Positions 9,597 to 47,303 of a stretch of 64,000 nt of DNA are shown piece by piece (within the stretch, counting starts at the first letter, position 1; each line of letters starts with the position of its first letter). The translations under genes and the position numbers were made by a program. The notes under the pieces were generated by a model. It was not told the DNA's origin. It did no database searches and saw only the letters and a program-made list of their open reading frames with translations. Source of the DNA: Lophium mytilinum (taxonomy: Eukaryota); the NCBI GenBank assembly GCA_010093605.1, contig MU004194.1, positions 68,156-132,155 on the forward strand, given 5' to 3'.

Positions 9597-12500
9597 TCAA
9601 CCTTGTGTTCGCTTGAACATGCCTGGTCGGTACTTCCCATCGCTCGAAGCCTGTGGTGGCGGCAGAGGAGCTTCCCTAGGTTCGTCGGCTTCCCGACCCT
9701 CTTGTCGTCCGCGAAGCGCTGGGGCCGTGAACTTGCCAGCGGTGGCAGGGCTCTGTGTTCGGTTCCGGTCGCCACTATCCCTGAAACTACCTCTCGCTGC
9801 GCTCGGCGCGAAGCGACTGCCTGCTGCTGGTGACTCGTAGCGGCCTCCAACGGCGGGAGACTCATCTCGAGGCTCGCGGCCGCGACCGCTACCTTCCCGA
9901 GCACGCCAGCCGCCACCTGGTGCGCCAGGCGGAGCTGGGCTACCGTCCTCGCCACGGCGAAGGGCAGGTGGCACGAAGGCACCGGGTCGCCTCGCTGGTG
10001 GCGCTGCTGCCGCTGGTGCTTCTGACTCGACGGGAGCCTGAGACTGTGATGAGGATGCTTTCGCAGCCTCACGCTCTCGCCAAGAAGGTTTGTTGCCTGA
10101 CAGTACTAATGGTGCCCGACCAGAAGAGCCAATGGCAGGTGGTGCCCGGTCGGAAGGCAAATCGCGAGAGACGGGACGTTCTGGAGCCAAACCCTTCTTC
10201 TTGGCCAAAAGCTTGGCCTCTGCTTCCTCCTCGCGTTGACGTTGGAGAGCTGCCTTCTCGTCGAGATGCCTGTAAATAGTTAGCAGCAGATTCAATGAAC
10301 GATTTGCTTGGTGCACAACATACTTTCTCTCTTCGTCTCTCTTGGCCTTGATTTCGGCCAACTGTTGTCGCCTCTCTTCCTCTGCTGTTGCCTTTGCCTC
10401 AGCCTCTGCTCGTTCCTTCTCCTCGGCCTCCCTCTCCATCCTCTCCTGTTCTTCCCTCGCCTTCTTCTCTCTTGCTCGCGTCTCCTTGACTTCCTTGACG
10501 CGTGCGGCCATCTTGGCCTGTAGCTCCTTCTCGGCAGCCCTCCTGCGCTTTTCGAACTCGGTTTTCCTCTGCTCGCGCACGTCGTTTATGAATGTCTGGT
10601 ATACAGGCACGAGACGTGAAAGACGGTGCTTGAGCGCAACGTCCTCGGTGTGCTTCTGCTCAGACTCTCTGAGCTCCTCGGCCTTGGCTTTCTCATACGC
10701 AGCCTGATCGCGCTTCTTCTGCTCATCGTAATCCTTTTGCAGATGCTTGACTTCTTCCCGTCGATACGCGCGCTCCAGATGGTCAATACGCTTTCCTGCA
10801 ATACGGAGCTGTTCACCGAGGATGTTCTTTTCCTTCTCTAGCGCAGCAAGTTTCATGGCGCGGATGCGAGTAGAGTCGAGCTCAGAGATATCGGTAGGGA
10901 TGTCGATGTCAATCTTGGTCCCCTTCTTGAGTTCATCAAGCTGCTTTTCAATTTCTGCGCGTTGCACCCGTTGTTGTTCGGCCAGTAGCCTCTTCTTCTC
11001 ACGCTCACGCTGTTCTTCAGCAAGACGATTTGTCTCCGCCTCGAGAACTTGCTGGGCGCGGATGCGCTTGCGAGTGGCCTCCTCCTTCTCCTTCGCTGCC
11101 AGGGCGTTCGAAGCGGCTTCCTTTTTGCGATGAATGATGTCGCGACGGGCCAAAGTTTCCTGGTGCTCCTGTTCGGCACCCTCGGCAGTTCTGAGGAGGG
11201 CGGCTTCCTTAGCCTTGATACGCTCTTCATTAAACGCGGGGTCGACATATTGGCAGGTAACATAGAGCGCCTTTGCTAGACGTGTGAGCTGAGAGCGAAC
11301 GATCTCAGCAGGTGTGCTTTGAAGTCGCTGCACAGAACTCTTGTCGCTTTCGGCAGAACCAGCGCTAGTTCCCGGATGCATGGCCTTTGCGGAAGAGAAA
11401 ACATCTGAGTCGAAGGTGAGAATGCCCGCGGCGTGATCCACGCGAATAGCCAGGTCGCCCTTCTTGCAGCCGTTCATGATGAACTTTTCGATCATGCCGG
11501 TAGTGACCTGGAATGGGTCTGGGAATTGAGCAAGATCGAGCACAAACTGGATCTGCACCGAGTCGTAGACTTGCGAAAGTTGCTGGAACAGGCGGGTGAG
11601 GATGACCTGCTGGAGCGGGCCAACATACTTCTTCATCTCCTCATCGGCTCCAATTTTGGCGAGGATAGGGGATATCTTTTTGCAGATGGAGAGGGGATGG
11701 AAATCAACCTCGAGGATGTTGTACAGCTCCCGAATTTCTTCCCGAGCTCTGCTCAACAGACCTTTGCTAAGGGCGTCTTTGAACAGAATAGCACGGGTTG
11801 GCGCTTGCGACATGCCAAGTAGGTTGGTGAGACGCGAGTTCTTGTTCTTCCTCGCTTCATCCACGTCTACTAGAGCGCCACGAGATCGCGAAGTGCTGAT
11901 GACCGGGATGGACAGGGCAGAAAGCAGGACGTACGAGGCGGCCTTTGTCATGTCGGCCTCGGTAACGGAGGGGTTGTCCTTCTTCAGGCTCTGTCCAGAG
12001 GCTACAGCCGCAGCAGACTGGCGCAGCAGGTTGTAGTATCTACTCCAGGCAGCGGCATGGAAGAGGTAGTTCTCGCTGACGAGGAAAATCCGTGTCAACT
12101 TCTCGAAGTAATTGGCCATCATGATGTTCTTCGCAGGCCGCTTGCTGAGATTGAGGAGGGTGTGGATGTCTTCTACACTTCGGAAGGCCTCCTGCCAGAG
12201 CTCCAGCTCGACGGCGACGTTCAGCTGCTGGAAGCGAGTGTCGAGATGGCGCTGGAGGGTGTCTGGGTCGCTGAGATTGATGGCGTGCATCTGCGACGAG
12301 AACTTGGCGGCATTCTGAAGATGGTTTCGGAGCAGCTCACATAGACGGCGGAACTCGGTCTTTCGCGCGTACTTGGAACAGAACTGGAAGGCCTGGTGGG
12401 CGGTGGTCTGGTACATGATTTCTAGCCGAGCATTGTTCTTGAAGATGTCCAGCACGGTGCGGTATGTCTCCCACAGGAATTTGAGCCATGGCGTTACGAT

Positions 12501-13124
12501 GGCGCGGTCAGTACGGTCTCGCGATTGCTCGCCCGAGACGGTGGAGAGGAGGATGGATTCGGGGGTTTCTGAGGCTTCCAGGTCGTCGACATTCTGGGCA
12601 TCGCCGGGCTCCAGGGTGGACTGGATCTCGTCGGCCTTGGCCTGGGCTTCGGTGACCTTGGCCTCAGCCAGCGAGATGAACTTTTTGAAAACAAGCTGTG
12701 AAAATTTATTGTCAGATGCTGCCTGCCGAACAATGGAACCGGGGGGCTGCATACCTCAATCGTCCCGACATTTGTGTTCTGCGCTGTGTTCTTGTATTGG
12801 TACAGGCCATCCTTTGCGAGCTTGCCCTTGCGGAGATTGACGCAGAGCTCGACGAACAGCAGCATCACCGGCTCGAGAGCGGCGATGGGGCTGTTGCGGG
12901 TCCGCTTGGAGACGACATGCTCGTGGAGCAGCGACAAGGCCGCTGAGCTTTGGCCGACGCCGATGAGTTCTTGGGCACGTTTCTGGGGCAGTCAGCTAGA
13001 TGTCATCGTCGATTTTTCTGGCTTCTGCACGGCGGCGCTGGGGGCTTGCCGCATCCGGCACAGAGGGCGATCAAAGGAGGCTCACGAAGGTATTCTCGGG
13101 CTTCGAGCCCGGCGGAGGCGCCAT
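9597..13124 (-). CDS. tif32: Eukaryotic translation initiation factor 3 subunit A (4 exons)
   Basis: Spliced N-terminus [62 protein letters not shown] domain; long charged coiled coil; RG/P-rich tail. Introns at ~12987-13085, ~12698-12753, ~10272-10322. Confidence 0.97.
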
Positions 13125-15746: not shown

Positions 15747-18002
15747 ATGGAGAACGAGACAGACCCCCCGCCGTGGTCGTCTGCCGACCAGTACGACCCC
15801 ATGTCGGCGCCCTTCAACGACCTGATCGACTTTGGCGAGCTGGACATCGAAAACATCAACTTTGGAGATACCGTCTTCGAGCCGGACCACAGCCAAAACG
15901 ACTCCAACCACCAGCTGTCCAACGAGCTGGCCGACTCGCTGAAAGCCCAGCATCTCCAGCAATTCAGCCCGCCTGTGCCTCATAGTAATCGCCATGCGCC
16001 CCCCAGCACCCCAGATCCGTCGCAAACTCCCCATGTCGGCTGCGAGATGGCCCACGCGAATACCTTCTACGATTTCGACATGTCGGCCTTCAATCAGACC
16101 ACGCAGGCCCAGGTGTCCTTCTCCGCCGCTCAAGAGCCCATCTTCCATTCGCACACAGGTGTCCCACCGACTCCAAACAGCGTCGAAATGCATGGCGACG
16201 CAGCGCGATATCTCCAGCACATAGACCCCCAAACGCGCGCTTTCATAGAGCAACGGTATCAGTTGCGGAAAGAGGAGGTAATCTATAAAGATGCCAAACT
16301 TTAAGACTCTGCTAATATTTCGAAGGCTGCTTTCACTCCCCTAGTCTCCCCCGCCGTCACCCCACATGATATCCGCTATCAGATGCCCGAGTACACGACA
16401 GTGCCCGGCCCATACTTCAGTCCACTCACATCTCCCGCATTGAGAGCTCAGAGCCAGCAAGAGCGGGACGCATACCAGCGCAGTCAATACGGGACGTCGG
16501 GGAGCTCGGCAGGGACGTCTCCAATGGAATTCGATGTTGATATGCTAGGGGAAGCAGCGACGTCACAGCCGGATGCCGGCAGACGACTCAGAAGCAACAA
16601 GAAAACTGGAAATAGGTCAGCCGCTGCATCGGCGCGTGTGCGACAGTCGCCTATTGTCAAACCTTCTACCAGACGCAAAGCAACACTCTCATCGGTCATC
16701 CCACCCAAGGAAGTCAGTGACCTGTTGGAAGAGGTACAGAAAGCGAAGCATACGCAGTCAAACTTCAACACACTCCCACCACCTCGAAGCCAGGATGCTT
16801 CTGAGGCAGAGTCGATTTCCCCGGAGCCGTTGTCAGAGATGCGCCCACCCCCAAGACCTGGTTCCGTCACACATTCCCCCGCTATATCTGCCAAGGGTGG
16901 TAACGCCTTTTCCCCTATGCACGGCGCAGCACAAGGTCTCCATCCTGCAACCCCCGCCTCTTTAATGCGACTCCAGCAATCGCCCAGTTTCTCGCCAAAT
17001 CTCTCGCATCATCAGGAGATGTCGCCGCTCCTCGAGGAGCTAACGCTACCGGAGTCAGCGACAACAACCTCACGTCCATCTATCGCGCGCTTAGAAACTT
17101 CATTCCTGGCTCACGATGAGGACCAGAGCACGCCACGTTTACCGGCACGGAAAACCCCGAAGCTCAATCCGTCGAGCACGCCTGGGAGTATTTCTCTGTC
17201 TCTGGCTCCAAGTCCGCTGATGAGTGCCATATCGTCTCCGACGAGTCCAGGATTTGCACTCAACGGCGCGAGAAGGATCGAAGCTAAAGGACCCCGAAAT
17301 AGCAAAAAGCGAAACAGCACAAGCTCGGCACTTGTGAGTCCAGCTTTGAGACCGAAGATATCGCCGAGCATCAAGCCTCTTTTGCCTGATGGGGGTATGT
17401 TTTTTTCTTCCTTGGAGCCAATCTTGCTCTGCTGTTTCTCGAGAAGCAACTAACAGTTTGCAGCAACCTCAGATGAGACGCACGCACTTCTCCTCGCCTC
17501 GAAATCAAACTATCAAAACATCCTAGACGGAACAACTGTTCCTGGGGTCAATTATCCATCCTCGTTGTCAACGAATTTGACATCGAAACGCACCTCTCAC
17601 AAAATCGCAGAGCAAGGTCGGCGAAACCGCATCAACACAGCACTCCTAGAAATGCAAACTCTCCTTCCATCTCCTCAAATCAAAGCTAAAGATGCAAGCG
17701 ATTCGAAGAGCCCAGAGGGCAATGGCAGTGGCGGTAGCGCTGGCAGTGTGAAAGCGGCGCCCGCTGTTCAGAGCAACAGCTCCAAGGCCGCGACTGTCGA
17801 AACCGCGATCGAGTACATCAGGAAGCTTCAAAAGGCCCAGCAAGAGAAGGAGGAAATTATCAACAAAAAAGACGAGGAAGTCGAAGCGCTGAGGCGCGAG
17901 CTAGCCCAGCTACGGCGAAGAAGCTCGACATCGACGCCGGGTGTGGTCGAAGAGCCCAAAAAGGAGGCCGACTCCGGGACAGAAATGGTGGATGCCACGT
18001 GA
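15747..18002 (+). CDS. palcA: bHLH phosphate-acquisition transcription factor (PalcA/NUC-1/Pho4 family), 3 exons
   Basis: VPPTPNSVEMHG, FTPLVSPAVTP, YFSPLTSPAL, VSPALRPKISPSIKPLLP, LLASKSNYQNILDG and the bHLH basic region TSKRTSHKIAEQGRRNRINTAL...SKAATVETAIEYIRKL. Confidence 0.93.
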
Positions 18003-27146: not shown

Positions 27147-28099
27147 GTCTGGTGGTGTCGTAGTACCGTACATCGTCCTCTCGCGATGATGGAGAGTGCT
27201 TGAGATGTTGAGAGAACGAAGAGATGGTGGCGATGAGTCTTTCCCTGAAGCAAGGCCTCTATGGCGCGGTTAGGGGGAGAGGTGGCGGTGGTAGAGGTGG
27301 TTGAAGACCCAGGTTACTAGACTGAAAGAACGGTGTTGATGTTTATAGCTGTGTTATATGGGCGCTGAAGGAGTACGCCGGCCAAGTTACGATTCACTGA
27401 ACGCGTTACCTAGGGAACGGAGGTGGTAAACGGAAAGGAGCACGCTGATGACATCAGTGACATGACGCGCTTCGTGAGGAGGACTGCGTCGTGCGTGCTG
27501 CTTTTGTTGTCAGTGTCACGCGGAGCTGTAGACCGTCTAGACTCACGTGCCTACGGTGCTCGCTCGTGCAGCTGAGCGTGGTTCGAGCCATTGAATAGCG
27601 CGTAAAGAATAGAGCAAGTCAAAACTGCTTTGGCCTTTCTAGATCTGATAACGCATCGAAGAACATTGATAGATATCAAAGCTACCAATGTCGGTGGCGC
27701 GCGGAGTCTTTTGATTTACGACGTCGTAATGTTCACATCTTGTTCGGAACTCGCGAACCTCTCGAGGTGCCTGCGACAGCGCGGAGATGTAGCAGAGTTA
27801 GACCCTCGTTCAAACAGGAGGGAACTTCTCATCTTGTCAGGATCGTTATTGAAGATCCGTAACAGCTGCGTACCATGTCAGTGTCCGATCTAATATCTAG
27901 AGCAGATTGATATCCTGCAGTGATGATGATCATACGCTCTCCAAAGAACTATGGCCCTATGGAACGGCTTCAAGCAATAGTATATGTAGGGCAGCGGCCC
28001 AGTACAGCGTACAGCGCCTTACAGTTTGATTGGATTGACATGTTTTGAAGATGACGAAGCACTGTAATGGGATATTCGCTTACCATCTAAGGCATATGC

Positions 28100-28450
28100 A
28101 CCGGTCTCTAACTTTGGGAGTGCTCTATAGGCGCTTATCTCCTATAAGAGATAGGGCTTACAATTATGTATAATCTTATTGTCTCTAAGCTAGCCCTATT
28201 GTATTATACTTATCAAGGACTACCTATATTAATTTAGATACAGCTTATAATTTAAAGACGCAATATTCTTGCGGAGCAAGGGACGCTAGGTCTCTTAGGT
28301 AGTCTTTTTGGTAGATGTGATAAGGAAGAGGTTAGCACAGCTATGAATTATTTGGTGAGGCTCGCCAGGGGCATCACATGATATTGAATATTTGATAAGA
28401 TATAAGAGATGTTTCAGATTAAAGAATTGCATTCAAATCTGTACAAGAGG
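28100..28450. other. AT-rich, TpA-rich patch resembling a RIP-mutated repeat remnant
   Basis: Abrupt AT enrichment with dense TA/TAG/CTA/TAA (e.g. ttatgtataatcttatt, ctatattaatttagata) in otherwise ~50% GC sequence. Confidence 0.45.
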
Positions 28451-28589
28451 CTTCCCTTTCGCGCGACCTAAAGAAAGAGGAACTGCGGTCCCCTTTGATG
28501 TCCAAGAACGCTAATCGGTAGAAAGAGACGCAGTACTCTACCAGGATACCATTACATTCTCCTTGTACACCAGATCAGGAACTTATCGC

Positions 28590-29837
28590 TTACTTCTGCT
28601 CCTTCCCATGCGGCTCGAGTTGGACGCCCGGCTTTTTGGGTATGACCAAGTCTCGGTCGCCCCTCTTCAAAGTCTCGAGAAGATTCCCTGGTTGGTTCTT
28701 ACGAAACTTGGCAGCTTCTGCTGGTGTGATGTATTTACCCTCGGGAATACCCACGGGGCAAGTCAGGGTATATGCAGGAGAAGCTTGGAAGGCATAATCT
28801 GGGCTCCCGTCTTCGGTTCGTCGGAGTGCACCCGTGCGCGGCTGTGGTGGCGGCGGCATGGTCGGTGACCAGACGGTTCCAACAGTCCCTTTTGCTTGGG
28901 CAGCAAAAAGGGATAACTCGTAGTCGAGACTGGGGTCCGGATTCTCTTCAACAGTCTGCAGCTTGGGTGATGAAGCTTCCGGCTTGGGGTTTGACTCAGT
29001 CAGTAGCTTTGATTCCTCAACGCAGGCCTTGCAATCTTCGAAGTACTTATCGTAGACTGTTTTCTGTCCTTCAAATCTGAGGAGCAGGGTGTTGTAGTAG
29101 TCTGAGTCGAATGAAAAAGCATCTGCACAGGTATGTTCAGGTCCCAAGATATCATATTCCTCGTCCAGGATTGGACCCTCGTAAAGAGAGTCTGCGGGAT
29201 TGTCTAACGGGCCATCGATTTCCTCGCTGGTACCCTCGTCAAAATGGCCAAGGTTGTTGTCAGCGCCTTGGTCTTCTGCTGCTGCTGCAATCAACTTGCC
29301 CGCGGCATCCGCACAGATCTCACAGACGTAGAAGTCGTCAGTGTCTGTTTGCGGTGATCTGCCAGGACAATTGGCTGCGCAGCTGGATCCACACGGAATT
29401 GCATGGAAGGACTCATCATAATAAGGGTGGCCACAGTCTAAGGTGTGGAAGAACTGAAGATTCGACGGCTCGTAATCTAAGGCCAAACCGTGTTCCGTAA
29501 GTCCAGAAGTGGCCTCAATATCTATCTTGGAGAGGTATTCTAGGTCCTCGGGAGCGACACCGAGAGCGAACTGGGAGGCGTAGTCTACGAGCTCATCTGA
29601 GGATCTGTCGAAGTTCGATGTATCATCATCCGTGGCCAAACCACCTTCCACAGTTTCCGAAGCAGCTTTGAGAGCCAAGTCCGTTAGGCTGTCCGCAATC
29701 TCATCCACAGGCCCACCTATGTTCATTCTGTCCACCTGGTCGGTGAAATCTTCCATGTTGGGAGAGAACTCGGAATGATCTTTGGAGTTGACTGATGGGC
29801 CAGAAGATGAGGAAGACGAGGTGCGATTTGGGTTCAT
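28590..29837 (-). CDS. Acidic orphan protein (415 aa) with one Cys/His putative zinc-binding module
   Basis: Long intronless ORF with a TATA (ctatataaa, minus strand, ~30022-30030). Contains HTLDCGHPYYDESFHAIPCGSSCAANC...FYVCEIC. Confidence 0.8.
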   Translation of the reverse strand: MNPNRTSSSSSSGPSVNSKDHSEFSPNMEDFTDQVDRMNIGGPVDEIADSLTDLALKAASETVEGGLATDDDTSNFDRSSDELVDYASQFALGVAPEDLEYLSKIDIEATSGLTEHGLALDYEPSNLQFFHTLDCGHPYYDESFHAIPCGSSCAANCPGRSPQTDTDDFYVCEICADAAGKLIAAAAEDQGADNNLGHFDEGTSEEIDGPLDNPADSLYEGPILDEEYDILGPEHTCADAFSFDSDYYNTLLLRFEGQKTVYDKYFEDCKACVEESKLLTESNPKPEASSPKLQTVEENPDPSLDYELSLFAAQAKGTVGTVWSPTMPPPPQPRTGALRRTEDGSPDYAFQASPAYTLTCPVGIPEGKYITPAEAAKFRKNQPGNLLETLKRGDRDLVIPKKPGVQLEPHGKEQK

Positions 29838-30772
29838 TTTGTACAGATTCGGTGCTGAGAGGATGCGGGGTGGTGGCCGCTTCAGTTGTTGAGAAGTTGG
29901 TGAGGAGGAAGTGCTTTATGGGATTGGTGTTTGTTGTGGTGGTCGGAAAGCTGGTGTGTGGTGGTTGCTTTATGGGATCAGTGGTGTTGTGGTAAAAACG
30001 TAAGAGGAGAAAAATAGGTGGTTTATATAGTAGAGGTGTGCGTTGTCTACATTCACTGTAACCCGTCCAGGGAGGAATCCGTGAGGTGGCCCTGCTCGTG
30101 CCAAAGTTACAGACCGCGCCTCCGCAGTGGTGAATTTCCTGGCCTTGAGTGTCCGGCTGCATGTTTCATTGCCTCTTTCGGTGATTTCTTGGGGTGCCTC
30201 CATGGGTTTCCAGAGCTTCGAACACGACGTCAAGGGGGGTACAGTGGAAAGCGGGCTTCCTTTTGACTGATCAGCTATCTGCTCGTCAGGCCACTCCTCA
30301 CGGTAGTGTCCAATAAGCAAGAATAGAGTGCGAACAGTATGATATCCGTGTGCTCAAAGCTATGGTCCCGTGCCGTAGCGGAAATATAACGCAAAGGTTG
30401 ATACACTGAATATTAGGTTGCTTCATAGCTGGATGGATGCTTACTAGTCGAGCTACCCCTTACAGTGGTATCCAGTTAGCAAGATTAAAGTCCGTACAAG
30501 CTTAAAGCCGTGTATTCTGTGTTATGATCCAGTGCTGCACATAAACAAGTTAGTACTTTTGAGTCAAATGAAGAAACGATGTAGAACTGAGAGTCGGGTC
30601 ACGGAGGAAAGTAATAACACAATAAGGGAAAGTAGGATCTTGTATTTGATTCCTTGTGAAGGCTTTACTGATTGTAATGCCCGTACAGGAACAGCAACTA
30701 GGCGGTCAAGTAAGAGAATTGTCTTTACCACCTCGAAGACATAGCATCTATCGCCAAGCGAACATCTACGCA

Positions 30773-31675
30773 CTAGATGCCCATCGTTTCCACCCCCGCT
30801 AGCGCGCGTTCCATCTCGTACATGCACGTATTGCATTCGAATCTGCCGGCTGGTCGGGTGTTTGCAAGGGGGATGTTGCCACAGCGAGCACTGCAGTTCT
30901 CGCAACAATTTGTCAACACATGCGTAATTATCTGGTGCCCGCATTGGAGAAGATGGCTCTCAGACACCGCGTAGGAAGCCCGTGACTGACCTCCGACAGA
31001 AATTGCTCCGAAATTTTGTGCCATCTCTTCCATTGTGATATCTTGGGGGGAGAAGTACACACAGTTGCGTGGCGTACGGTAGCCATGAACGGGGTCGATC
31101 GGAGTACCAGTAGCAAGGCATGCTGAGCACTCGAACACTCCGTCACAATCTGTGTTCGGGCCCGCACAGTTGCAAGCACAGCTAGCAGGATCGCCAGGTG
31201 GGACCTTCACTGTGTGTCCACACTCAAGGATGTGGTAAGGGGAAGGCACGCCATGGTGGATGTGTAGGCAGGGAAGGATGCGTCCAGCAAGCAAGGTCGT
31301 CCGGGTGTTTGACATCGGTGATTCTTGGAGCTTCAAGATCGTCGCCTCTTCGTACTTGAAGCAATGTCGCATGACAAGCTTTTGCATCCGCAAACTGACG
31401 TTGCGCAGAACGTAAGCGTGCGTAGATCCTCCTCCTTCTTCCACACATTTTTTGCACAGGAATTCTTCGTCCGCGAGCTTCGTAGAAATTTGATCACGCT
31501 CAGAGGTCGGCTGAGGTGCCATTGCGGGCATAAGGCAGTTGCTGGCGCATGGCTCGACCGTCGGTGTGGCGACGATGTGTTTGCAAAATAGCTGGTGGAA
31601 GTGGGTGTTGTCGCAGCATTCGACTGGGCTTCGTAGGCGATACGTGGCCCAGAAAGACGTCGGCGTGTTTTCCAT
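30773..31675 (-). CDS. Cys/His-rich orphan protein (300 aa) with three tandem putative zinc-binding modules
   Basis: Intronless ORF with three copies of HxLxC[GK]H-x9-11-CxxNC-x9-26-FxCxxC. Confidence 0.8.
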   Translation of the reverse strand: MENTPTSFWATYRLRSPVECCDNTHFHQLFCKHIVATPTVEPCASNCLMPAMAPQPTSERDQISTKLADEEFLCKKCVEEGGGSTHAYVLRNVSLRMQKLVMRHCFKYEEATILKLQESPMSNTRTTLLAGRILPCLHIHHGVPSPYHILECGHTVKVPPGDPASCACNCAGPNTDCDGVFECSACLATGTPIDPVHGYRTPRNCVYFSPQDITMEEMAQNFGAISVGGQSRASYAVSESHLLQCGHQIITHVLTNCCENCSARCGNIPLANTRPAGRFECNTCMYEMERALAGVETMGI

Positions 31676-33163
31676 TGTGTAGGGCTATGAGAAGGGGTGG
31701 TGGTATGAAGGCGAGAGAAGATGAAACAAAGTGAAAACCAGAAGGACTGCCACGAGTAGGTCGTCTATAAGTACGAAGAAGTGACAGACCGTTCCTGCCT
31801 GGAAGCGACAAATTGTACGCCAATGCTGGTGGAAGTTTCTAGTGAAGTTCTGGGGTGAAGGCGAAGAAGTGATTGACGGCTAGAACCTAAAATTCTGCGC
31901 AGTGAGCGTGAAATTCTACCCAGTGAAGGTAAACCCTTTCATAACGAAAGGCAGACCTGCTACTGAGGCTTGTTCAAAGCATCTGCTTTGAAGAGCTGAA
32001 ATATGTGATTGAAAGCGATGGGTAATGTAATACGACATCTTTTACAAGGTCTTCAATGAGTGCTGCCTAAGGCAGTGCCTCGGTGACTTCAATGATTGAT
32101 CGGTTATTTGGAAGCTGGCCTACTCTTAGAAGCGGTGATTGAATGCTACTATAGCAAGGGTGTAGTTGTTTAATCTAGTTAAAACCAACTTAAATTCTGG
32201 CTCCAGGCTGGCACCGTCTGTGGCGCTACAACGATCTCGTGAGAACTAGAATAAGATGTAACAAACATCACGGCGTAATTCAAGATCGGAGAGAGATCAG
32301 TGTGCGATATGCCCATAAAGAAGGTAGTTTTCCAACCTAGATAGATCGGAATGTGATTGTGCCTCCTTGACGGCGCCGTTTGAGGTACTCCGACTATCTA
32401 GAAAAGTCGTAAGGAGACTTTAGAGATCTAGGCGTGTAATTCAACCTTATGAAAGCATAGTACTCGCAGAAGGCGGACAACGTCCATGATGTCCGATCCT
32501 CCGTAGACGATCTCCAGGGAAGCACATGTTGATGATGACTGCGCGTCTAGACCGCGAGGATGTCCAATCTAAGATGATCAAGCTTCGGAGCGTCGTAGAG
32601 GCCGAAGCTCGAGATGTTGGAGGTCAGGCTTCATGGTGTTGCTGTCGTCGGACATGCCACATGGAAATATTCGTATCTCTTCCCCCGAGGGACCCAATAC
32701 GAAGGACGCCATCGGCATACCACCGTGGGGTAGCCAGACGTCACGGCTGTATCCTGGCTACGATCTCCCCGATGAGCAATCCTCCCGTCCCAAGTGCGGT
32801 GTGGAAAAGCCTCGTAACGCCGTCGGGCGTCGTTTCTTTCGACGTCCGCGATGCCGACTGGCCCATGGAGCAGACGAAGCTGTATGTTTGGCCCCTGTTT
32901 CCGCGAGAGTTGGTGCAAGTGGATGTACATCATTACATCCAGAAGCCATGGGTTGGATAAGCCGTCGACCCCTCGTGGGAAGCCTAACACCTAGACCTGC
33001 GGAATATAGCAAGACGCCGACGCCTCTATATAAATACCCAAATCCTCAAGAGCTTACTTTCTATCACCAAACCTACCTCACAAACTCCAATTGACCAAAC
33101 CAACTCAACTCAAAGCAAGACATCTCGGTCAACTACTCAACTTCCCTTCCCCTCACAACCAAA

Positions 33164-33721
33164 ATGGCAAACACCACAGACGAGCAAGCCGCCATGCAAG
33201 CAATGGAGATGCCCCGCGTCCCCGTCAACCTCGTCACCGCAACCCAAGGCGAGATCCTCAAGCTCGGCCACATAACCTGCCGCATCCAAGAAGACGGTTC
33301 CCGCACAGGTACCACCCCCATCCTCCCTCCTCCCCTCCCACCACTAACACTCCCAGACAACCGCATCGGCTCCGCAACCTTCACCCTGCCCCCCCGCACC
33401 GCCGGCCCGCCCGCCCACTGGCACGAAATGCACGACGAGACCTTCCTCGTCACCAAAGGCGTCGTGCGCTTCCACGCCCCAGACGGCGCGGTCATCGACG
33501 CGGGCGTCGGCGACTACGTGACCGTGCCCATCCGCGCGCCGCACACCTTCTCGAACCCGTTTGACGAGGAGGCCGAGTTCTTCAATACTTATACGCCCGC
33601 GTTTTATATTAACTATTTTAAGATGCTGGCGAAGATGCAGGAGGGCGAGCAGAAGATGAGTGCGGAGAAGAATTTGCAGGCTATGGCGCATTTTGCGACG
33701 ATGCCGGCGAAGGGGATGTAG
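33164..33721 (+). CDS. RmlC-like cupin-domain protein
   Basis: Cupin metal motifs GPPAHWHEMHDETF and VPIRAPHTFSNP; TATA (ctatataaat) at ~33026. Confidence 0.92.
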   Translation: MANTTDEQAAMQAMEMPRVPVNLVTATQGEILKLGHITCRIQEDGSRTGTTPILPPPLPPLTLPDNRIGSATFTLPPRTAGPPAHWHEMHDETFLVTKGVVRFHAPDGAVIDAGVGDYVTVPIRAPHTFSNPFDEEAEFFNTYTPAFYINYFKMLAKMQEGEQKMSAEKNLQAMAHFATMPAKGM

Positions 33722-37230: not shown

Positions 37231-39732
37231 TGTACGGCATAGAGATAGCAAGATAGTAACGACAAGGCCAGGGACGGCTCTGTGGGCTCGTGGACGCGCA
37301 CGGTATGTATATGGGGGAGTAGGCCGTCCCGTCATCCGCATACGCAGTGGCTGCGACCATCCGCCGTGGCTCGCCTAGTATGCTCTCCAGGGCTAAGGGT
37401 GCATGAAGAGTAACGCAAGTTGGACTTTCTAACGAAGCCCGAAAAGGGACACATCAGCGTCCTTTGGCTTGTGGATGGTCAGATTCACGCGAGCATATCA
37501 GCGGGAGGGAGCCCAGCCGGGCGATCTTGGAGGGGCGATCCGATGCGGAAGAAAGGCACATGGGAGACGATTTCCATGTCTCACTTCCAGAAATTAGTGA
37601 ATTGCCAGGGGTGCTGACGTCCAAAATCAGCCCCTGTGCGGTCATGGTTGGTCGCTGCCCCAACTCACACAATAATGATCGTCCTGGCTAAGAGCGAGCT
37701 GTCTGGCCAATCATATAGCAGCAAGCGTCACTTGAAAACTCCGCAAGGCCGAGTAGTAGCCGCTGCAGGTACTCGGATGGAGGCTGCGCGGACAAGCTTC
37801 GGTCCCAAACTCTGTTCCTGCCGGTAGTTGTGAGACATTGGCATAGCAACATAAAAAGACCTCAGGAGTAGAAAGGAGACGTTACATTCTGAAGTAGGTA
37901 GGAAAGAAGCGTCTCGGGATGGTGATGGACTGGCACAAACCGAAAGGTTGCATATTTGCATCGTTGACCTTGTCAGTGGAGGGAAACAAAAATAACGGTC
38001 CACTCAGAGAGCTCTTGGGACCCGTTGTATGCGGTGACGCCTGACGCCTGATCTTAGGGCCTCCTACCAGAACCAGCAATGCAGTGGAGGTATCACACTC
38101 TTGTCACGCGTTGGATGTGAACTGGATGTTTCTCTTGCAGCTCCCCAGGGGATTCGGGGAGGGTCAACCCAGCACAATGTAGATATGCCTAACACCGTTG
38201 AATTTGCGAGACTGTCTCACGCCAGTCATCATGCACAAGCGTTGTATAACTCCGGTAAACTGCCTCAATAATGCCTGCGAAGACGAAAGAAAGACAGCTA
38301 ATTCGTCGACTTTGCTTTTGTTTCCAATATTGGTGAGGTAGACGAGCTATTGGCTGTGATTGGCTACGCTCGCTAGTGGGGCCACGGACCGATTCCTTCC
38401 GACACAGAAGAAAACCTCAAAGTTTCTTCTGCCATCTCTTCCTCCAACATCGTCAGTTCGTCCAATTATTCATCACCCTCCCATCACATCAGCGCATGCA
38501 TGCCTCTTGCAGGCTGATGCCAGCACGTATTTCAATGCGCCACAGCTTCGTAGTCAACGCCTCAATGTGAACTTCTGGCACTTAAGTCTTCGGGCTGCGC
38601 TCTGTTCACTAGCTTGCTGCACTCTGGCGATCTGCATGGAATTCGAGACCTCGCTTTGAGCCTACTCACAGGCAATAATTCGCGTGCTCGGCCAGGCGTC
38701 TCCTGGCTTGTTGCTCGCGATTTTTCGAGCGAACTCACTCTTCGTCCAGTCCGTAATGTCTCGTGGAGAGGCTAATTAACCTACTACCGTCTTTCAGACC
38801 ATGGTCACTCGCACATGATCCCAATCTGAGGAACACGGAAATCTGAACTCTTTTGGTCTTGACGGTGCCTGCACAGCGAAGGACTACAAAGGTACGCTCT
38901 ATCCATTTCTTCCCCTTAAATACATTGTGATGAATACAAGCGAATACACAGACCTGTTCCGAAAACACTATGTGGAGTATTCTTGGAGACCTTCTGAACC
39001 GATATCTTTTGTTTCACTTTTGCCAAATTTTTCCGTTGGAACCACAGCTGACCGATTGTTCAAGCAGTACTCGTAACCACACCTTCCGCTTCCCATCTAA
39101 CAGCTTTGCTGGTGTGCCGCGCAAGTTCGAGTCGCTTCTCGACATAGTAATACGTGCTCATCATACTATACTTGACATCATCGATATTATAACACGGCAT
39201 TGAGTTGTATGGGCTTATTCCCAAAAATGAGAAGATGCTGTTCACGAATACGAGACATAGATACTTGCCATGCTTGAAGCATCAGCCAAAGTCTGTGTAT
39301 GTATGGTAGCTAACACGCTATCACTAATGACGCTGCGTTGCCTCTCATGGGGTTCTCTTCGAGTACGTTCGAACATAAACCAACATGCTTGCTTTGTTCC
39401 CATTGTCCTCGAGTTTTGTGAAGGCATTCGCCTCCTTGCTTTCGAAATGTCTTTGTTCGAGGCTACGGAGGATACGCTTCTTTGTTAACAAAATGACAAT
39501 GATATTATTGGAACAACAATCTCTTTTTCTCTAAACAAAGCTGCTGTCTTTGACGGCTAAAATATCATGGCTGTATAGCTTTAGAAGTGACCGTCCCCCG
39601 TCAGGTCCTCTCTCCTACAATCCCCTCGAGACTGAACTGGACAGCGATCTTAAATCCCAACGCAGGTGCAAAAAACAAAGTTCCGAGTTAATCATCGATA
39701 TCAGCCGCGCAACGCCTTTGCAAGCTACAATC

Positions 39733-42282
39733 ATGTCTTCGCGACGTTCTAGTTCGCGCAATCCCAGTATAGTCCCCAGGCGAAATTCTTCGATCCGTCT
39801 TGATGAGTCCACAAATCCTATTCGATACCCTAGCTTCTCCGCAAATGCTGACTGGACATTTGAGGCACCACCTGGACAACAGGACGTCGACTGGAGCAAT
39901 GTGAATTTCGATGACCCGGCATTTTCTGGGTACAATGGAGTTGACCAGCAACCCTCCACTGATTTGCTCTTAGACAGTCTCTCATACTTGGAACCTGAAC
40001 AGCAGGTAAATGCGGCCAAGAGCCGCCGAGCTTCTGTCCAAATGATGAACAGGCCTCTGGCTGCAGTGCCTGGCCTGGAGATTCCACAGTCGTATGATCT
40101 GCCCACCAACTTTAGCGTCGACCCTTCGATTCTAAACTCAGACTACCAGAATTCCACTTACGGCTTTCAGTCCGAAGCGAATGCACCCTACTTCACTGAC
40201 GATTTCGGACTGCAACCGCAAGTTTATGACGGATTTGTGCCAGCTCCGCAGGATATCGGTACGGCGGCAAATTTGTATGACAATGACCTGCGAGCCTCGC
40301 CGAGGACACGAAAACGTTCACGCGAAGATCCAGCATACCAAGAACGTCCAGAGAAACGTACTCGTGGAGAAGAACCGTACCGCAGACGCTCTCCGAAGTC
40401 TCGACGCAGCTCGGGCAATTCGAGCGAGTTGAGCGAGACAACATCTCTAAGAAAGAGCCGGAAGGCAACCACAAAGGTCACGAGAGCGGTCTACGAACCC
40501 GAGAAGCCAGAGACGGATAAGGACAAGCACTGGATCAGGATAAACCAGACTACCGAAGGAAAAACCAGCCGGACGGGAAAGATCAATCATTACAAGGCTG
40601 AAGAGATGTATAACCACAACCTCACCCATACTATTGGCGACTGGCAGGGTAGCAAGACACTCTTCCAGTACGATAGGAACGGCGAGCTCCAACAGAGGAC
40701 TTACAGTGCCAAAGAAATTCGCGAGTTCTTGTATGAGCACCCACGAACTAGAGATTGTAAGTTGAAGCTTTGGATTCAAAAGTCCCCTGCAGACAGCGCT
40801 CGACGTTACCCACAGGAACACTCCTCGAAATGCCGGTTCCGATGCTGTCCGATCCAAGCTCACTTCAAGGGAACTATCCTCCACGGTCACTACCGTGTTG
40901 CCTTTGATGAGAAGTGGCACAAGCATCGCGAAAACGCCGACCCGTTCCACGTGGCTGCGTATGTCCATCTGTACTGCCTAGAGCGCTTCCTCGACTTCCC
41001 CGATATCTGCAACAAGCTTGAGATTGCGGTTGACGACCGACGACTGCGAAATGAGCCAAAGGGGAAATTCCTTGCCAGCCTTGGAAACTCTATTGAGGGT
41101 GGCATCGCCCACAAGTTCATCGAGGACTGCAGGAATGGCCAGCTTGACCACGAGTATCCCGACTACCCCATCCACGGATACTACCGCCACGGGGAACCTA
41201 AACCACATGTGCATACCCTTACATATGCGTTGAACAAAGGTAAGACTGAAACGCGACCGCCTGCGCAGATCCGGCAGTTCGAGGAGCGCGGCCTGTCCAG
41301 CTCTCACATCTTGGTCCACATGGGTGATCTGGAGAAGTTTGTCAAAGCAAGACTGGACAAGAAGAAAGCAGCTAAGCGTAGGAAGCGTGGTGAGCCGAGC
41401 GAGGACGAGGCAAGTGATTCAGAACCCGAAGCCGTTCAACGAACTGCTCGTCCCCGCACAACAGCCACCCCGAAGGCTGAACAAGCTTCTACTCAACGTC
41501 CTTCCCGTTCTCATGCGTCTTCGGAGGCACGCCGACGCAGCCCCCGCAATAAGGAGCGCATCAGCTACGCAGACATGGACGCCGAGCACTCCGACGCCAG
41601 CGGCGGTGAAGACACGCTCTTCATCCCCGAAGCCGCCGAGCACGAGCGCCAGCTCCTCGACGACCGCCCCTACAACCACCCCCAAGCCTACTACCCCAAC
41701 CCCCAAGACTACTTCTCCCATGCCGCCTCCCCCCAGAAGCAACTCCAACCCCGCCGCTCCTCCCTCGCCCAATACCCCCGCCCCGACCGCCTCCGCCGCG
41801 TCTCCTGGGCGCCAGACCCCAAGTACGACCATCCAGCGTACCAACCCGAGCAGCAAACGCCCTGGCCACAGCAGCACCCGCAACAGCAGCAGCACTACCT
41901 CCCCCCGCAACCTCCGCTCGAGCCCGACTACACCAACCTAACCACCCGCAAGCCCAGCGCCGGCTTCACGCAGCTCCTCGACTCCATCCAGTCATACGAG
42001 CTGGACCCGGCAGCCCAGTTCCTCGCCTTCGACGACAGCCTGCTCTTCGACGACTTCACCGCCGGCGGCGTTTTCGCGCAGCCGACGTCGCCGGCGAGGC
42101 GAGGGTCGAGTCCGCTGCGGCGGCGGTCGGCGGAGTGGAAGGTGGTTAGCGGGGAGCGGAGGGGAAGTAAGGGGAGTCCGAGGGAGCAGCAGCGGCGGCA
42201 TAGTATGCGGCTTAGGAGTCGGGGGAGTAGTTTGGGGAGTCTGTTTGGGGGGTCGCCGAGTCCGCCGGGGACGGGATCGTGA
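39733..42282 (+). CDS. Large uncharacterised protein (~850 aa), probably nuclear, with a central globular Cys/His domain
   Basis: The first in-frame ATG is at 39733 (the track start is TTG). Disordered termini, basic NLS-like stretches (KKKAAKRRKRG) and a central domain LWIQKSPADSARRYP...CRFRCCP...HYRVAFDE...HLYCLERF. Confidence 0.85.
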   Translation: MSSRRSSSRNPSIVPRRNSSIRLDESTNPIRYPSFSANADWTFEAPPGQQDVDWSNVNFDDPAFSGYNGVDQQPSTDLLLDSLSYLEPEQQVNAAKSRRASVQMMNRPLAAVPGLEIPQSYDLPTNFSVDPSILNSDYQNSTYGFQSEANAPYFTDDFGLQPQVYDGFVPAPQDIGTAANLYDNDLRASPRTRKRSREDPAYQERPEKRTRGEEPYRRRSPKSRRSSGNSSELSETTSLRKSRKATTKVTRAVYEPEKPETDKDKHWIRINQTTEGKTSRTGKINHYKAEEMYNHNLTHTIGDWQGSKTLFQYDRNGELQQRTYSAKEIREFLYEHPRTRDCKLKLWIQKSPADSARRYPQEHSSKCRFRCCPIQAHFKGTILHGHYRVAFDEKWHKHRENADPFHVAAYVHLYCLERFLDFPDICNKLEIAVDDRRLRNEPKGKFLASLGNSIEGGIAHKFIEDCRNGQLDHEYPDYPIHGYYRHGEPKPHVHTLTYALNKGKTETRPPAQIRQFEERGLSSSHILVHMGDLEKFVKARLDKKKAAKRRKRGEPSEDEASDSEPEAVQRTARPRTTATPKAEQASTQRPSRSHASSEARRRSPRNKERISYADMDAEHSDASGGEDTLFIPEAAEHERQLLDDRPYNHPQAYYPNPQDYFSHAASPQKQLQPRRSSLAQYPRPDRLRRVSWAPDPKYDHPAYQPEQQTPWPQQHPQQQQHYLPPQPPLEPDYTNLTTRKPSAGFTQLLDSIQSYELDPAAQFLAFDDSLLFDDFTAGGVFAQPTSPARRGSSPLRRRSAEWKVVSGERRGSKGSPREQQRRHSMRLRSRGSSLGSLFGGSPSPPGTGS

Positions 42283-43184: not shown

Positions 43185-44201
43185 TCATGGCACCTGGATG
43201 GGCTCCACGGCACTCAACTCCAAGCTGATTTCTACCCCCCGCACTCGTTTGAATCGTGTTCTCGCGTCGCCCTGCTTATCGAGTATCAAGTCGTCCGGAT
43301 ATGAACGTGCCAGCGTCCGCACATCCTGTCGCAGAAGCCGCTGGATAGCAACGATTTTCACTTCTGCATCGTGCGTTTTGCCCTGCAGCGACAGCACCAA
43401 GTTCTCGAGCCCCTGGTCCCGGTCCCAGCGATAGAAGCGGTCAATGAGATGCGCAGCACCAGCATTGTGGACCACGGCAGGCGGATTTGCGCCGCCTGGT
43501 GGACCGGGAGGAGGTGGCGGGACCGGGATCTGATTCCCAGGCTGATTACCCGGCTGATTACCAGGCTGGTTCTGGTGTTGATGCTGAGGTGGAAACGGAT
43601 TTTGCCAATTCGGCTGCTGCGCCGCCCACTGAATTGCTGGGAACATCATTGCAGGAGAACCCCACGACCCGCAGCGCAGGAAGATCCACAGGCTCTTCAG
43701 CCTGGGCAGGTCGGCGTGCAAGCTCCGCGTCTCGCTCGAGCTGCTCAGGTACGAGATCCAGAGACGCAGGTCCTTCTCGCGGATGCGGAAGCACACGCTG
43801 GTGATGTGCTCGCTGCAGGGCGACGCGACGACGCGGAACATATTGCAGTCGGAGGGATGGGTGAAGAGGAACTTGTTGGAGCTGTAGAGAACCGGGGCGG
43901 CCTCGGCGTACACTTGACGCGAGGTGAGGAGCAGGTTGGGCTCAATGTTGTGGTCCGTCGTGGGATTTGGGTACCAGAATGGGGACGCGGAGGTCAGAGC
44001 GAAGGTGTATATGCGGTCGCGGAGCTCGCGAGGGAGGGCTAGCAGCTGCGATGGCATTGTGGGCGGAGCGGCCCGTGGAGTGGGTGTAGGGAGGGGAGGA
44101 TGGGATTCCCGCGGCGAGTAGGAGGAGGTGTCGGGGGAATCCGTCATGACAGTGTCTTCGGAGGACGACTGGAGCGGGGTGGAGGGGTCGGACGATGGCA
44201 T
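43185..44201 (-). CDS. F-box-like N-terminal motif protein (Dothideomycete LPRELRDxIY family)
   Basis: LLALPRELRDRIYTFAL and LLLTSRQVYAEAAPVLYSSNKFLF; internal NQPG repeats. The likely start is MPSSDP at 44201. Confidence 0.8.
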   Translation of the reverse strand: MPSSDPSTPLQSSSEDTVMTDSPDTSSYSPRESHPPLPTPTPRAAPPTMPSQLLALPRELRDRIYTFALTSASPFWYPNPTTDHNIEPNLLLTSRQVYAEAAPVLYSSNKFLFTHPSDCNMFRVVASPCSEHITSVCFRIREKDLRLWISYLSSSSETRSLHADLPRLKSLWIFLRCGSWGSPAMMFPAIQWAAQQPNWQNPFPPQHQHQNQPGNQPGNQPGNQIPVPPPPPGPPGGANPPAVVHNAGAAHLIDRFYRWDRDQGLENLVLSLQGKTHDAEVKIVAIQRLLRQDVRTLARSYPDDLILDKQGDARTRFKRVRGVEISLELSAVEPIQVP

Positions 44202-45143
44202 CGTGGGTGGATGTGGCGGCGGAGGCTGAAGGGTGCGGAAGAAGGGGCACCAGACACAGCAACTTATAAACGAGTGAATGTATATGTCAGCTTCCCAGCG
44301 GCGTGGTCGACGCTGTTTGTGCTGGAGTCGTCCCACTTGTGTTTGCATCACCGAGACGGCCCGCTGCTTGGCAGAGTCTACATCCGGCCTAGGCGCAGAA
44401 GATCCATCTTGATGTCCAGATGGCGACCCGAGCCTCACCATTTCTCCAGCCGTCACCATCCAACAGCAACGCATGCTGCTTCCTCCCGTCCATGTGTGCA
44501 ATTCGATCACAATGCTTCTAGTTCTATCCCCTCTGAGAGCTTTCACCGAGTCTGAGGAGCTCCTTGTTCTATTACGCCTTGTTCCTCTGCCACAGTCTCG
44601 GACACTGTCTTAACAGCCTGTATTCAGCTACAGTCGGGTACGCAGCTGGATCTTTATCTTTTACATCCACTTCATGTGCATATGGTCTATCGCATTGCGC
44701 TGGTACCTCTCCATACCATAGCTGGACCTTCCGCAAAGTCATGTCCAAATTGCAGGTCGCAAGAAGAAAACTACGGAGCAAGGGCACTTTCCAATTTTGC
44801 CAAGCGGATGTTACCAAGCTTATCGCTCATAGGCGGTATCGAGGAACTCGTTCTTTGTTCCAGTCAAATGTATACAATGCATAGCACGCTGCCTAACTAT
44901 TCGTCGAAGTGTGATGGTCAACAATACCATTGTCCTTCTCGTCTTTGGCTTTATCTGCCCCACGGGCCAATGAGAAAGCGTTCGAACCTCATTGGTTCGT
45001 GGGGCAGATACACTATTGTATATAAAATAAGCACGCCGTCCCCATTCTGACATCAACTCATACCACCATCACAATCATCGCAGCCATCACAAGATACAAC
45101 CCCGACTGTCCAATAAATCAAAAAACTCAGAAGATCTACAACG

Positions 45144-47303
45144 ATGGCTTATAGACCAAGGAAACCTTCTACCCTCCATGTGGTTACCGGAGTAAACGAC
45201 ACTGAACAGAGAGATATCGAAATGGAAGGTTTGATGATCAGAGACTTCGATATGGGTGTTGTCCCGAATGGAGCTAGATCTCCTACTTGGGACGAGATAA
45301 ATCTCGTCATGAGTACGGCCATGCCTGATTTCTCCAAGATCCACAGGACCTCCCTTTTTGACTTGGATTACACTAGCATTGCCAGTTCGACACCCAGCGC
45401 CGACGAGCTTGACCCCATCACAGAAATGGAAGAGGATGCCCCTATAGAAATGGAAGTGGATCCCGCTACAGAAACGGCGATTGCCCACATTACGGAGTTG
45501 GAAGAGAACCCTATCACAGTAACAGCAGAGCGGGATCTGGAAGCGGTGCTAGAAGACATCTTGCATCCTCCAGTCAACGCGTTCTTCTCACAGCGAAGAC
45601 AACAGATCCACAAAATGCTCAACAGTGGGGGTACATGCGACTTAACAAGAGTTTGGTTCGGAAAGAACCATCGCGGGCACTTTACAGCACAGGGAATCTT
45701 ACGCACCAAGTCGGTTCTTCGGGACTTGCAAATAAGTGAAAAGGTGATTCCCGGACCATACTGGAATTGGCTTCTGCACCGAGATGCCGACCCGCCTCAG
45801 TTACAGATACCTGGTTCTGTTCGCAGGAACGCCCGGTTCAAGTTTATTGGAAACATCGAAAAATGCCGTACCACTATAAAGAGCAGTTCGAGCCAGGCAA
45901 ACACTATATTCAAACTGGGCTCAGATTCATACACTACTCAGTTCATCACCGACGATGAGATTGTTTTACCCAGTCCGGTCGCGTCTCCATTCACTCCTCC
46001 TCCTAATTTGATTAACATAGCTGCTCCACTACGGACCCCAGGGATATCTTCTAAATTCGGCTTGATCTTGTCGCTTGAGGATAATCCAGACCCTCCAAAC
46101 ATCATATATGTGCTTCGGGAGCCCCCTCTCGGCGCCTTCATAGTTGCGCCAGGTGATAAGTTATCTGGCGAAATGTCACGAGAGTGGTTGCTCGAACAGT
46201 CTCCTACCCATTTCGAAAGGGAACAGAACGGAAACATCGTCATGAAAAAAGGAGGCGAGCTACATCGCTGGGCTCTCCAAGGCTTCGAGAAGTTGCAGAT
46301 TGATGAAGATTATTGGCACTGGTTAGTGGACGGTCCTACGGTCGCTAGGCCGCACGTACCCATACTTCACGAATCTTCCCTCCGCCAATGTCTAATGACC
46401 ACCACTCCATCAGCCGCATTCCAAGAAAGCCGACCCACCGTTCAATTTGAGCCAGATGTGAGTCCCTTGAAGGTTCACAAAACCCCCATGTTTCGGATGG
46501 GGCCGCCGCTAGAGGTTCGTGAGCTCATAGATTACCTCAATTATCCCCGGGATGCAAGGGGCAAGAAAGCTTTCCTTGCATCTGGCAAGCTGAATCGGGA
46601 ATGGATTGTGTTTCTTTTCCCCAAGTACTTCAGCAAGGGTACCAATTACGGCGTGAAAGGCACGGTCGCGCTTCAACACTTCTCTGGATGGGACCTGGAT
46701 ATGGACTATGCTTACTATAGCTGGCTCGGTAACACAGCACTGGATTATCAACCTTACTTCCCTGGAACCACATCCAAGTTTCCTACGAAGCAGTATTTTG
46801 AGGAAAAAGTGGAGCAAAAGCGTAAAGCACTGGACAAAATGCTGGAGGAAGTCAAGCAGGAACTGACCAGCCAACCTCAACCCGCAACGGAGGATGTTGA
46901 GATGGAAGACGCTACGCCGCCTCTGTCCGCCAGTGCGCCGCCCGCAAATGAGGATGTTGAGATGACAGATGCGCAGCTGGCCGGCCTAGCCGGGCCAACA
47001 CGCAGCAAACTGTACAACAAGGTCTACCACACTGTCGGTAAATCTTTACGGCTTTGGGTTGCAGACATGAACGCCATGTATAGTGATAAGATCAACCTGG
47101 ATCCGAAGGAAAAAGGTTGGTTAACGAAGGAACTTTTCCGACTAATCTGCGGGAGACTGAAGGAACTTCGCAATATGGATGACGCTACTATTAGAGAGGT
47201 CACCAAGCGGGTTCGTGGTGAGGTCGAGACCCATGGCTGGATTGAGCTAGCAGAGCATTGCCGTCGTCGCGATGGGCCTATTCAATTCTCGATAAGGTGG
47301 TGA
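45144..47303 (+). CDS. Orphan protein (719 aa) with three internal Trp-rich repeats
   Basis: Long intronless ORF; TATATAAAA at ~45019; CA-rich leader; repeats described in findings. Confidence 0.82.
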   Translation: MAYRPRKPSTLHVVTGVNDTEQRDIEMEGLMIRDFDMGVVPNGARSPTWDEINLVMSTAMPDFSKIHRTSLFDLDYTSIASSTPSADELDPITEMEEDAPIEMEVDPATETAIAHITELEENPITVTAERDLEAVLEDILHPPVNAFFSQRRQQIHKMLNSGGTCDLTRVWFGKNHRGHFTAQGILRTKSVLRDLQISEKVIPGPYWNWLLHRDADPPQLQIPGSVRRNARFKFIGNIEKCRTTIKSSSSQANTIFKLGSDSYTTQFITDDEIVLPSPVASPFTPPPNLINIAAPLRTPGISSKFGLILSLEDNPDPPNIIYVLREPPLGAFIVAPGDKLSGEMSREWLLEQSPTHFEREQNGNIVMKKGGELHRWALQGFEKLQIDEDYWHWLVDGPTVARPHVPILHESSLRQCLMTTTPSAAFQESRPTVQFEPDVSPLKVHKTPMFRMGPPLEVRELIDYLNYPRDARGKKAFLASGKLNREWIVFLFPKYFSKGTNYGVKGTVALQHFSGWDLDMDYAYYSWLGNTALDYQPYFPGTTSKFPTKQYFEEKVEQKRKALDKMLEEVKQELTSQPQPATEDVEMEDATPPLSASAPPANEDVEMTDAQLAGLAGPTRSKLYNKVYHTVGKSLRLWVADMNAMYSDKINLDPKEKGWLTKELFRLICGRLKELRNMDDATIREVTKRVRGEVETHGWIELAEHCRRRDGPIQFSIRW

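Follow-up and report, generated by a model that had tools for sequence, protein, structure and literature searches.

Do two neighbouring open reading frames (ORFs) of Lophium mytilinum encode real proteins, and what is the cysteine- and histidine-rich (Cys/His) module that both of them carry? The question was raised by a first-pass annotation, made from the letters of the sequence, of a stretch of 64,000 nucleotides (nt) of contig MU004194.1 (assembly GCA_010093605.1, positions 68,156 to 132,155 of the forward strand). This whole stretch is called the window below, and all coordinates are given in its numbering. The pair in question, here called A and B, consists of the following two ORFs:

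30773-31675, minus strand: ORF A, 300 amino acids (aa), intronless, with three Cys/His modules, 24 Cys and 14 His
28590-29837, minus strand: ORF B, 415 aa, acidic, with one full module and otherwise probably disordered

Read in the standard code, A and B are co-oriented and separated by a spacer of 935 nt. From our analysis, we consider it somewhat more likely than not that they are real, intronless, tandem-duplicated genes of a Dothideomycete close to Mytilinidion and that their shared module of 40-60 residues folds around two Zn(II) ions. The exact protein sequences of A and B are both present in NCBI/UniRef, which indicates that annotators had called the same intron-free ORFs. By codon usage, the annotated frame scored best of the six for A and also for B. 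Both scores lie below those of the housekeeping reference genes (0.21-0.41 per codon), which doubled as the training set. The description of B as acidic was borne out by its 77 D+E against 30 K+R residues, with a net charge of about -47.

A regular-expression scan located four modules, three in A and one in B, where the first-pass annotation had placed them:

31445-31597, minus strand: module A1, residues 27-77 of A, HQLFCKH-x9-CASNC-x26-CKKC; upstream conserved C20/C21 are candidate eighth ligands
31118-31234, minus strand: module A2, residues 148-186 of A, HILECGH-x11-CACNC-x12-CSAC; upstream conserved C136 is a candidate eighth ligand
30824-30955, minus strand: module A3, residues 241-284 of A, HLLQCGH-x9-C-x3-C-x3-C-x15-CNTC; eight potential ligands within the module
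29313-29447, minus strand: module B1, residues 131-175 of B, HTLDCGH-x11-C-x3-C-x3-C-x14-CEIC; eight potential ligands within the module

Over ten copies, the module follows the pattern H-x3-C-x-H-x(9-15)-C-x3-C-x(11-26)-C-x2-C, after which a helix-like segment begins. With the pattern relaxed to H-x-[LIFV]-x-C-[GK]-H ... C-x3-C ... C-x2-C, a six-frame scan of the entire window met these four sites and no others. A hidden Markov model (HMM) of the module, run against 1633 six-frame segments of at least 25 aa, picked out A, with three domains, and B, with a single domain and a weak terminal knuckle, and no other segment; the best of the rest had E = 0.32. In pairwise Smith-Waterman comparisons, all six module pairs scored 46-86 against shuffle nulls of ~24-28 (standard deviation, sd, ~5), and for every pair none of 500 composition-preserving shuffles equalled the observed score. 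Module B1 is closest to A2 (score 86; null 28, sd 5.7). The earlier description of a tandem pair sharing a module agrees with these comparisons, and A and B are paralogues, which we infer to stem from a tandem duplication that followed or accompanied internal triplication. Further along the chain of B, a fragment of a second unit was tentatively recognized:

29007-29135, minus strand: degenerate half-module of B, H235-x-C237 ... F-E-D-C269-K-A-C272-V-E-E

The evidence for this fragment is a low-scoring HMM domain (2.8; residues 263-277) and inspection of the sequence itself, and its vestigial F-E-D-C-K-A-C-V-E-E resembles the F-L-C-K-K-C-V-E-E of A.

Is the Cys/His pattern maintained outside this genome? 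In searches over billions of proteins, only three kinds of relatives were found besides A and B. Mytilinidion resinicola has an orthologue of A (BDZ99DRAFT_127167, here P0002) with 81% identity. A JGI/IMG protein (P0014) is a full-length orthologue of A with 51% identity and all three modules, and P0015 is a second, near-identical member beside it. Finally, a Logan protein of 134 aa (P0013) has a complete module, the end of another, and a linker motif in duplicate. For A, both the length and the context of the start codon are conserved. The deposited model of P0002 seems wrong at both ends, as it has an N-terminal extension of 105 residues without counterpart in A or P0014 and ends at ...PRN after module 2, where A and P0014 go on into the third module. 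P0014 shares with A all 21 core ligands, 21 of the 24 Cys and 8 of the 14 His, but of the remaining 259 aligned residues only 122 (Fisher p = 0.0008). This difference shows purifying selection on A, with the Cys/His residues as its focus. The expectation that homologues would keep the Cys/His pattern was thus upheld, as was that of a narrow lineage distribution.

The narrowness of the family emerged from several searches. When 1.84 billion representatives were searched exhaustively with phmmer, 12 proteins were returned, of which three are real members (A itself, P0002, and P0013) and nine (P0004-P0012) are giant plakin-repeat proteins. A profile search retained 5 proteins among 172 candidates. 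Neither search brought up a further protein of this genome. The nine giant proteins had E-values of 1.7e-9 to 8e-5 and were rejected as relatives, being artefacts of repeat summation: they match residues 180-207 of A only, and their scores were summed over 6-11 repeats in eight of the nine (P0008 matches in one stretch). Scanning metagenome contigs with an alignment gave no match, and a 1238-nt metagenome contig found with P0014 (L001) proved a chance match whose ORFs are unrelated. The stretch of A that attracted the plakin proteins (residues 180-207; 31055-31138, minus strand; ATGTPIDPVHGYRTPRN) is conserved in P0014 and P0002 and resembles the plakin/plectin repeat core ATGGIIDPVHSHRVP. This likeness is probably a short chance match inflated by repeat summation; membership of the plakin (plectin) repeat family was rejected, the Pfam Plectin model not being matched and the similarity of A being confined to those residues.

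Apart from the modules, the proteins have a linker motif in common:

30995-31033, minus strand: linker motif of A, M-E-E-M-A-Q-N-F-G-A-I-S-V, conserved, ahead of module A3
29718-29756, minus strand: linker motif of B, M-E-D-F-T-D-Q-V-D-R-M-N-I

By the pattern M-E-E/D-hydrophobic-A/T-x-x-hydrophobic-x-x-hydrophobic-x-hydrophobic, which was composed after inspecting the sequences, the motif has two copies in P0013 and a single copy in each of A, B and P0014. The consensus of class-1a leucine-rich nuclear export signals is hydrophobic-x3-hydrophobic-x2-hydrophobic-x-hydrophobic, and the linker copies (among them MAQNFGAISV, FTDQVDRMNI, MTERLGAMEV) fit it. We regard this as a lead only, since amphipathic helices often show spacings of this kind.

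How many metal ions could such a module hold? The H, C, H, C, C, C and C of the pattern did not vary in two alignments, one with five and one with seven module copies, and in this respect the seven conserved potential ligands proposed by the first-pass annotation were found as described. The accompanying consensus stood in its core, although the L of its HxL is F in one relative, and its CxxNC held only in part, the register being ambiguous in A3, B1, and P0013, which have C-x3-C-x3-C. It also omitted an eighth conserved Cys, which is present in every copy at a varying position: upstream in A1 and A2, and within the C-x3-C-x3-C run in A3, B1, and P0013. All three orthologues (A, P0002, and P0014) keep C20/C21 and C136, while C257 is kept by A and P0014, P0002 stopping before module 3. 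Elsewhere in A, C168, C177, C258 and six His residues are not conserved. That the eighth Cys is always present though shifted suggests two metal ions per module.

Under this reading, each copy would have eight ligands, seven at fixed positions and the eighth relocated between copies. A first, treble-clef-like site would be formed by the C-x-H in the turn of a beta-hairpin and the C-x2-C with which the last helix opens, and a second by the leading His, the C-x3-C on a middle helix and the variable Cys; the two sites would be interleaved, as in cross-brace fingers. Protein A would then be a scaffold of three modules, like beads on a string, and B a single bead with a vestigial knuckle on a long, acidic, disordered chain. 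AlphaFold2 models gave a hint in this direction. Full-length A with three sequences reached a mean predicted local distance difference test (pLDDT) score of 27.9, and module 2, modelled on an alignment of seven module rows, reached 49.9. The best-scored parts of the low-confidence module 2 model are a beta-hairpin (20-22/28-30) with C-G-H in its turn, a helix over the C-x3-C and another starting at the C-x2-C, an arrangement that may fit a treble-clef-like site plus a second site. Searches with the same module 2 model using Foldseek and VIA-align gave no match. The likeness to treble-clef fingers would lie in the knuckle in a hairpin turn and the two ligands at a helix N-terminus; unlike in treble-clef fingers, the knuckle is C-x-H rather than C-x2-C and a second, unclassified site is interposed, and here the fold is only tentative. 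For B, the ESM Atlas model had a pLDDT of 0.37.

Does the module belong to a family already described? Pfam returned for A nothing except a sub-threshold YPEH2ZP match (PF14976; 11.4 bits against a gathering cut-off of 27) and for B no match; among seven isolated module pieces, YPEH2ZP alone was matched, by one piece (E = 0.018), and the relatives P0014, P0013, and P0002 gave sub-threshold matches only. YPEH2ZP, DUF6104, and Ribosomal_L29 were rejected, all being below the Pfam thresholds. IBR/RBR and PHD fingers (C6HC, C4HC3) were rejected likewise, with no Pfam match in whole proteins, module pieces or relatives. Against PDB sequences, A had matches with E above 2 only, and the module profile met rubredoxin and GATA knuckles only, with E above 1. 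We found no description of the module in the literature, in a search with few terms. As the first-pass annotation had supposed, the module is absent from described families, with no Pfam match and no PDB sequence match below E ~0.1.

The nearest comparisons nevertheless deserve consideration. The module is like the cross-brace of RING and SP-RING domains in its L-x-C-x-H element, in its terminal C-x2-C followed by a helix, and in its roughly eight Cys/His ligands within 40-60 residues, with a possible interleaved two-zinc arrangement. If it were a highly divergent RING-type cross-brace, A and B would be E3 ubiquitin-/SUMO-ligase-like proteins or pseudo-ligase relatives; its L-x-C-G-H and terminal F-x-C-x2-C resemble RING ligands 3-4 and 7-8 of the familiar consensus, eight ligands are reached when the variable Cys is counted, and their order permits a cross-brace. 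We hold this to be distinctly unlikely. In RING domains, a first C-x2-C pair lies 9-39 residues ahead of the C-x-H, and 2-3 residues separate ligand 4 (His) from ligand 5. The first pair was present in no copy of the module, there being CC upstream of A1, a single C upstream of A2 and nothing in A3, B1 or P0013, and in its place stands a single His four residues ahead of the C-x-H. The gap between ligands 4 and 5 is 9-15 residues in all ten copies, and the pair that follows C-x-H is C-x3-C in the module but C-x2-C in RING. At E up to 10, no RING-family Pfam model matched the two proteins, the seven module pieces or the three relatives, nor did the module profile match any RING chain in the PDB. 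The best PDB match of B was in fact the RING chain of MSL2 (4b7y_C; E = 1.1 with all of B as query, 0.096 with its module), which we treated as chance because the C-G-H of B is aligned to no ligand and flanking residues drive the score.

A second comparison concerns TAZ domains, whose HCCC sites have the form H-x3-C ... C-x4-C. Like TAZ1 and TAZ2 of CBP/p300, the module has H-x3-C and then a close Cys pair after about 10-17 residues, and its threefold occurrence in A recalls the three sites of TAZ. Were the module a TAZ-like HCCC helical zinc site, A and B would be transcription-cofactor-type interaction domains, and the ESM Atlas offers a lead of this kind: a single Ascomycota cluster, with the automatic name 'TAZ-type domain-containing protein', stood at rank 2 for A and at rank 1 for residues 105-290 of B (177/256 features). 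However, the best scores (0.83 for A, 0.87 for residues 105-290 of B) lie under the bar of 0.9, where one third of shuffled proteins score too, and the cluster has no Pfam family in common. The spacing is C-x3-C instead of the C-x4-C known from TAZ, each unit has an extra invariant His and a C-x2-C without TAZ counterpart, and the units of A lie 60-90 residues apart and behave as separate modules. Neither a zf-TAZ match at E up to 10 nor a CBP/p300 or other TAZ chain in the PDB profile search was obtained, and the weak AlphaFold2 model sets the H-x3-C-x-H in a hairpin, not in a helix. A TAZ-like site is therefore very improbable in our estimation. According to a preprint (bioRxiv 10.1101/2020.07.21.214338), TAZ2 consists of three HCCC zinc clusters in four helices, and TAZ-type fingers appear among fungal transcription-factor domains in PMC5415576.

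A third alternative keeps the ligands and changes the metal: the Cys/His clusters could bind an iron-sulphur (Fe-S) cluster or carry out redox or thiol chemistry. Runs such as C-x3-C-x3-C and the pairing of C-x-H with C-x2-C would suit this, and zinc and Fe-S sites are indistinguishable by Cys/His patterns alone. Yet no Fe-S family model was matched, and rubredoxin knuckles appeared in the PDB profile search with E above 1 only. Repeated beads-on-a-string modules and acidic disordered proteins are typical of structural zinc modules, and the combination of such repeats in A with an acidic, probably disordered B makes Fe-S or redox chemistry very unlikely in comparison with structural zinc.

What, then, would such proteins do? 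No signal peptide, membrane segment or basic surface was found in A or B, and an intracellular role as zinc-stabilized scaffolds for protein-protein interactions is for that reason the likeliest, with a role as enzyme or DNA-binder less likely; our confidence in any function is low. The pattern of Atg8/LC3-interacting motifs is acidic-acidic-aromatic-x-x-aliphatic, and a single short E-E-Y-D-I-L in the acidic region of B (residues 226-231; 29145-29162, minus strand) fits it.

Several considerations weigh against the reading of A and B as real genes with a two-zinc module. The codon score of B is weak at 0.10 per codon, and a word-indexed search for a B orthologue, which scored the 8000 candidates sharing most words, gave B itself only. 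Together with the degenerate second module, these two points could mean that one or both ORFs, and B especially, are non-functional, whether as an annotation artefact or as a decaying duplicate. Against this, B is a stop-free frame of 441 codons and the best of six, its module has all eight ligands intact and retains its similarity to A2, and A is clearly constrained. We give non-functional ORFs very little credence. As to the metal, zinc binding is deduced from the Cys/His pattern, so that Fe-S or no metal would be possible; the eighth ligand lacks positional conservation, for which reason some copies may bind one metal and have a half site; and, with both AlphaFold models of low confidence, spacing is the ground on which the two-site topology was guessed. 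The adaptor role is reached by excluding other features and is of low confidence accordingly. Finally, the narrowness of the family may be apparent, with short, fast-evolving modules escaping sequence searches, and the common TAZ-named Ascomycota cluster, although a weak lead, would also speak against it.

If the module is indeed a two-zinc domain with a fold of its own, the repertoire of zinc fingers gains a domain family. With about ten copies in few genomes and one mobile ligand, it would in that case also offer a compact model of the way in which metal sites are rebuilt when domains duplicate. A bolder proposal is that the module is a new two-metal fold, different from RING, TAZ, PHD, and LIM, which originated in a single order of wood-inhabiting Dothideomycetes, or changed there past recognition, and spread by internal triplication in A and tandem duplication to B while its eighth ligand migrated. 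We regard this as fairly unlikely. Conceivably, it would allow the birth and remodelling of a zinc-binding domain to be traced. As the evidence stands, A and B represent another taxonomically restricted family, with a tentative role.

Do A and B also form a functional unit? They are adjacent and co-oriented and have the module and the linker motif in common, which would suit an obligate two-gene system, either as a heteromer or as an antagonistic pair (killer and antidote, drive, or non-self recognition). However, no B-type partner was found for any orthologue of A in the protein collections searched, and tandem duplication explains the adjacency without a functional link. Around the pair, no polymorphism, repeat or transposon signatures were seen apart from a short dispersed element in the spacer. 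A shared promoter element was rejected as evidence of co-regulation, as 8 of 60 shuffles matched or beat the best shared ungapped upstream stretch. Taken together, an obligate two-gene system is extremely unlikely. A complex prediction with full-length A, residues 105-290 of B and four Zn, made without an alignment, scored 0.00 in both runs without yielding a verdict, the fold of the partner itself being uncertain.

Some sequence elements outside the two ORFs may still be recorded:

30022-30029, minus strand: TATATAAA box in the A-B spacer, ~185-192 nt upstream of the ATG of B, a consensus match by direct reading only
31779-31791, minus strand: CGGTCTGT[AC]ACTT site, at about -110 of A
30104-30116, minus strand: CGGTCTGT[AC]ACTT site, at about -270 of B
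28102-28114, plus strand: CGGTCTGT[AC]ACTT site, downstream of B

Three copies of the 13-mer CGGTCTGT[AC]ACTT are thus present in the window where 0.11 would be expected, for a pattern that was picked post hoc. The short dispersed repeat of the spacer, of ~45 nt, lies at 30438-30490 and 30285-30322; at 80-90% identity it recurs in at least seven other contigs of a source-like DNA run (X1) and in two contigs of X3, and it may be a small interspersed element. X3, presumably RNA, covered this repeat but neither ORF, which speaks neither for nor against expression. No Rfam family was matched within 27500-33000, the spacer repeat included, and no tRNA was found in the 64-kb window.

Does the pair lie in an accessory island, as the first-pass annotation had it? 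The neighbourhood is made up as follows:

5898-6788: TRI12-like transporter fragment
9597-12755: eIF3a
17454-18002: bHLH protein
33164-33721: cupin, divergent from A
43185-44609: DUF7730 protein
53879-56242: kinesin

The island claim was not sustained, since the flanking genes are ordinary, with eIF3a, bHLH, cupin, and kinesin genes around the pair, and the GC content at the A/B locus (0.49-0.50) is within the range of the window (0.48-0.60). Several shorter unassigned ORFs lie at 18-27 kb, and the region is rich in genes that resist annotation. Two long stop-free frames on the plus strand, 39535-42282 (915 codons) and 45117-47303 (728 codons), had no Pfam match at E <=0.001. Near the start of the window, a CorA-like Mg2+ transporter match (1546-2592, minus strand) reached 22.6 bits, under the Pfam cut-off of 27.

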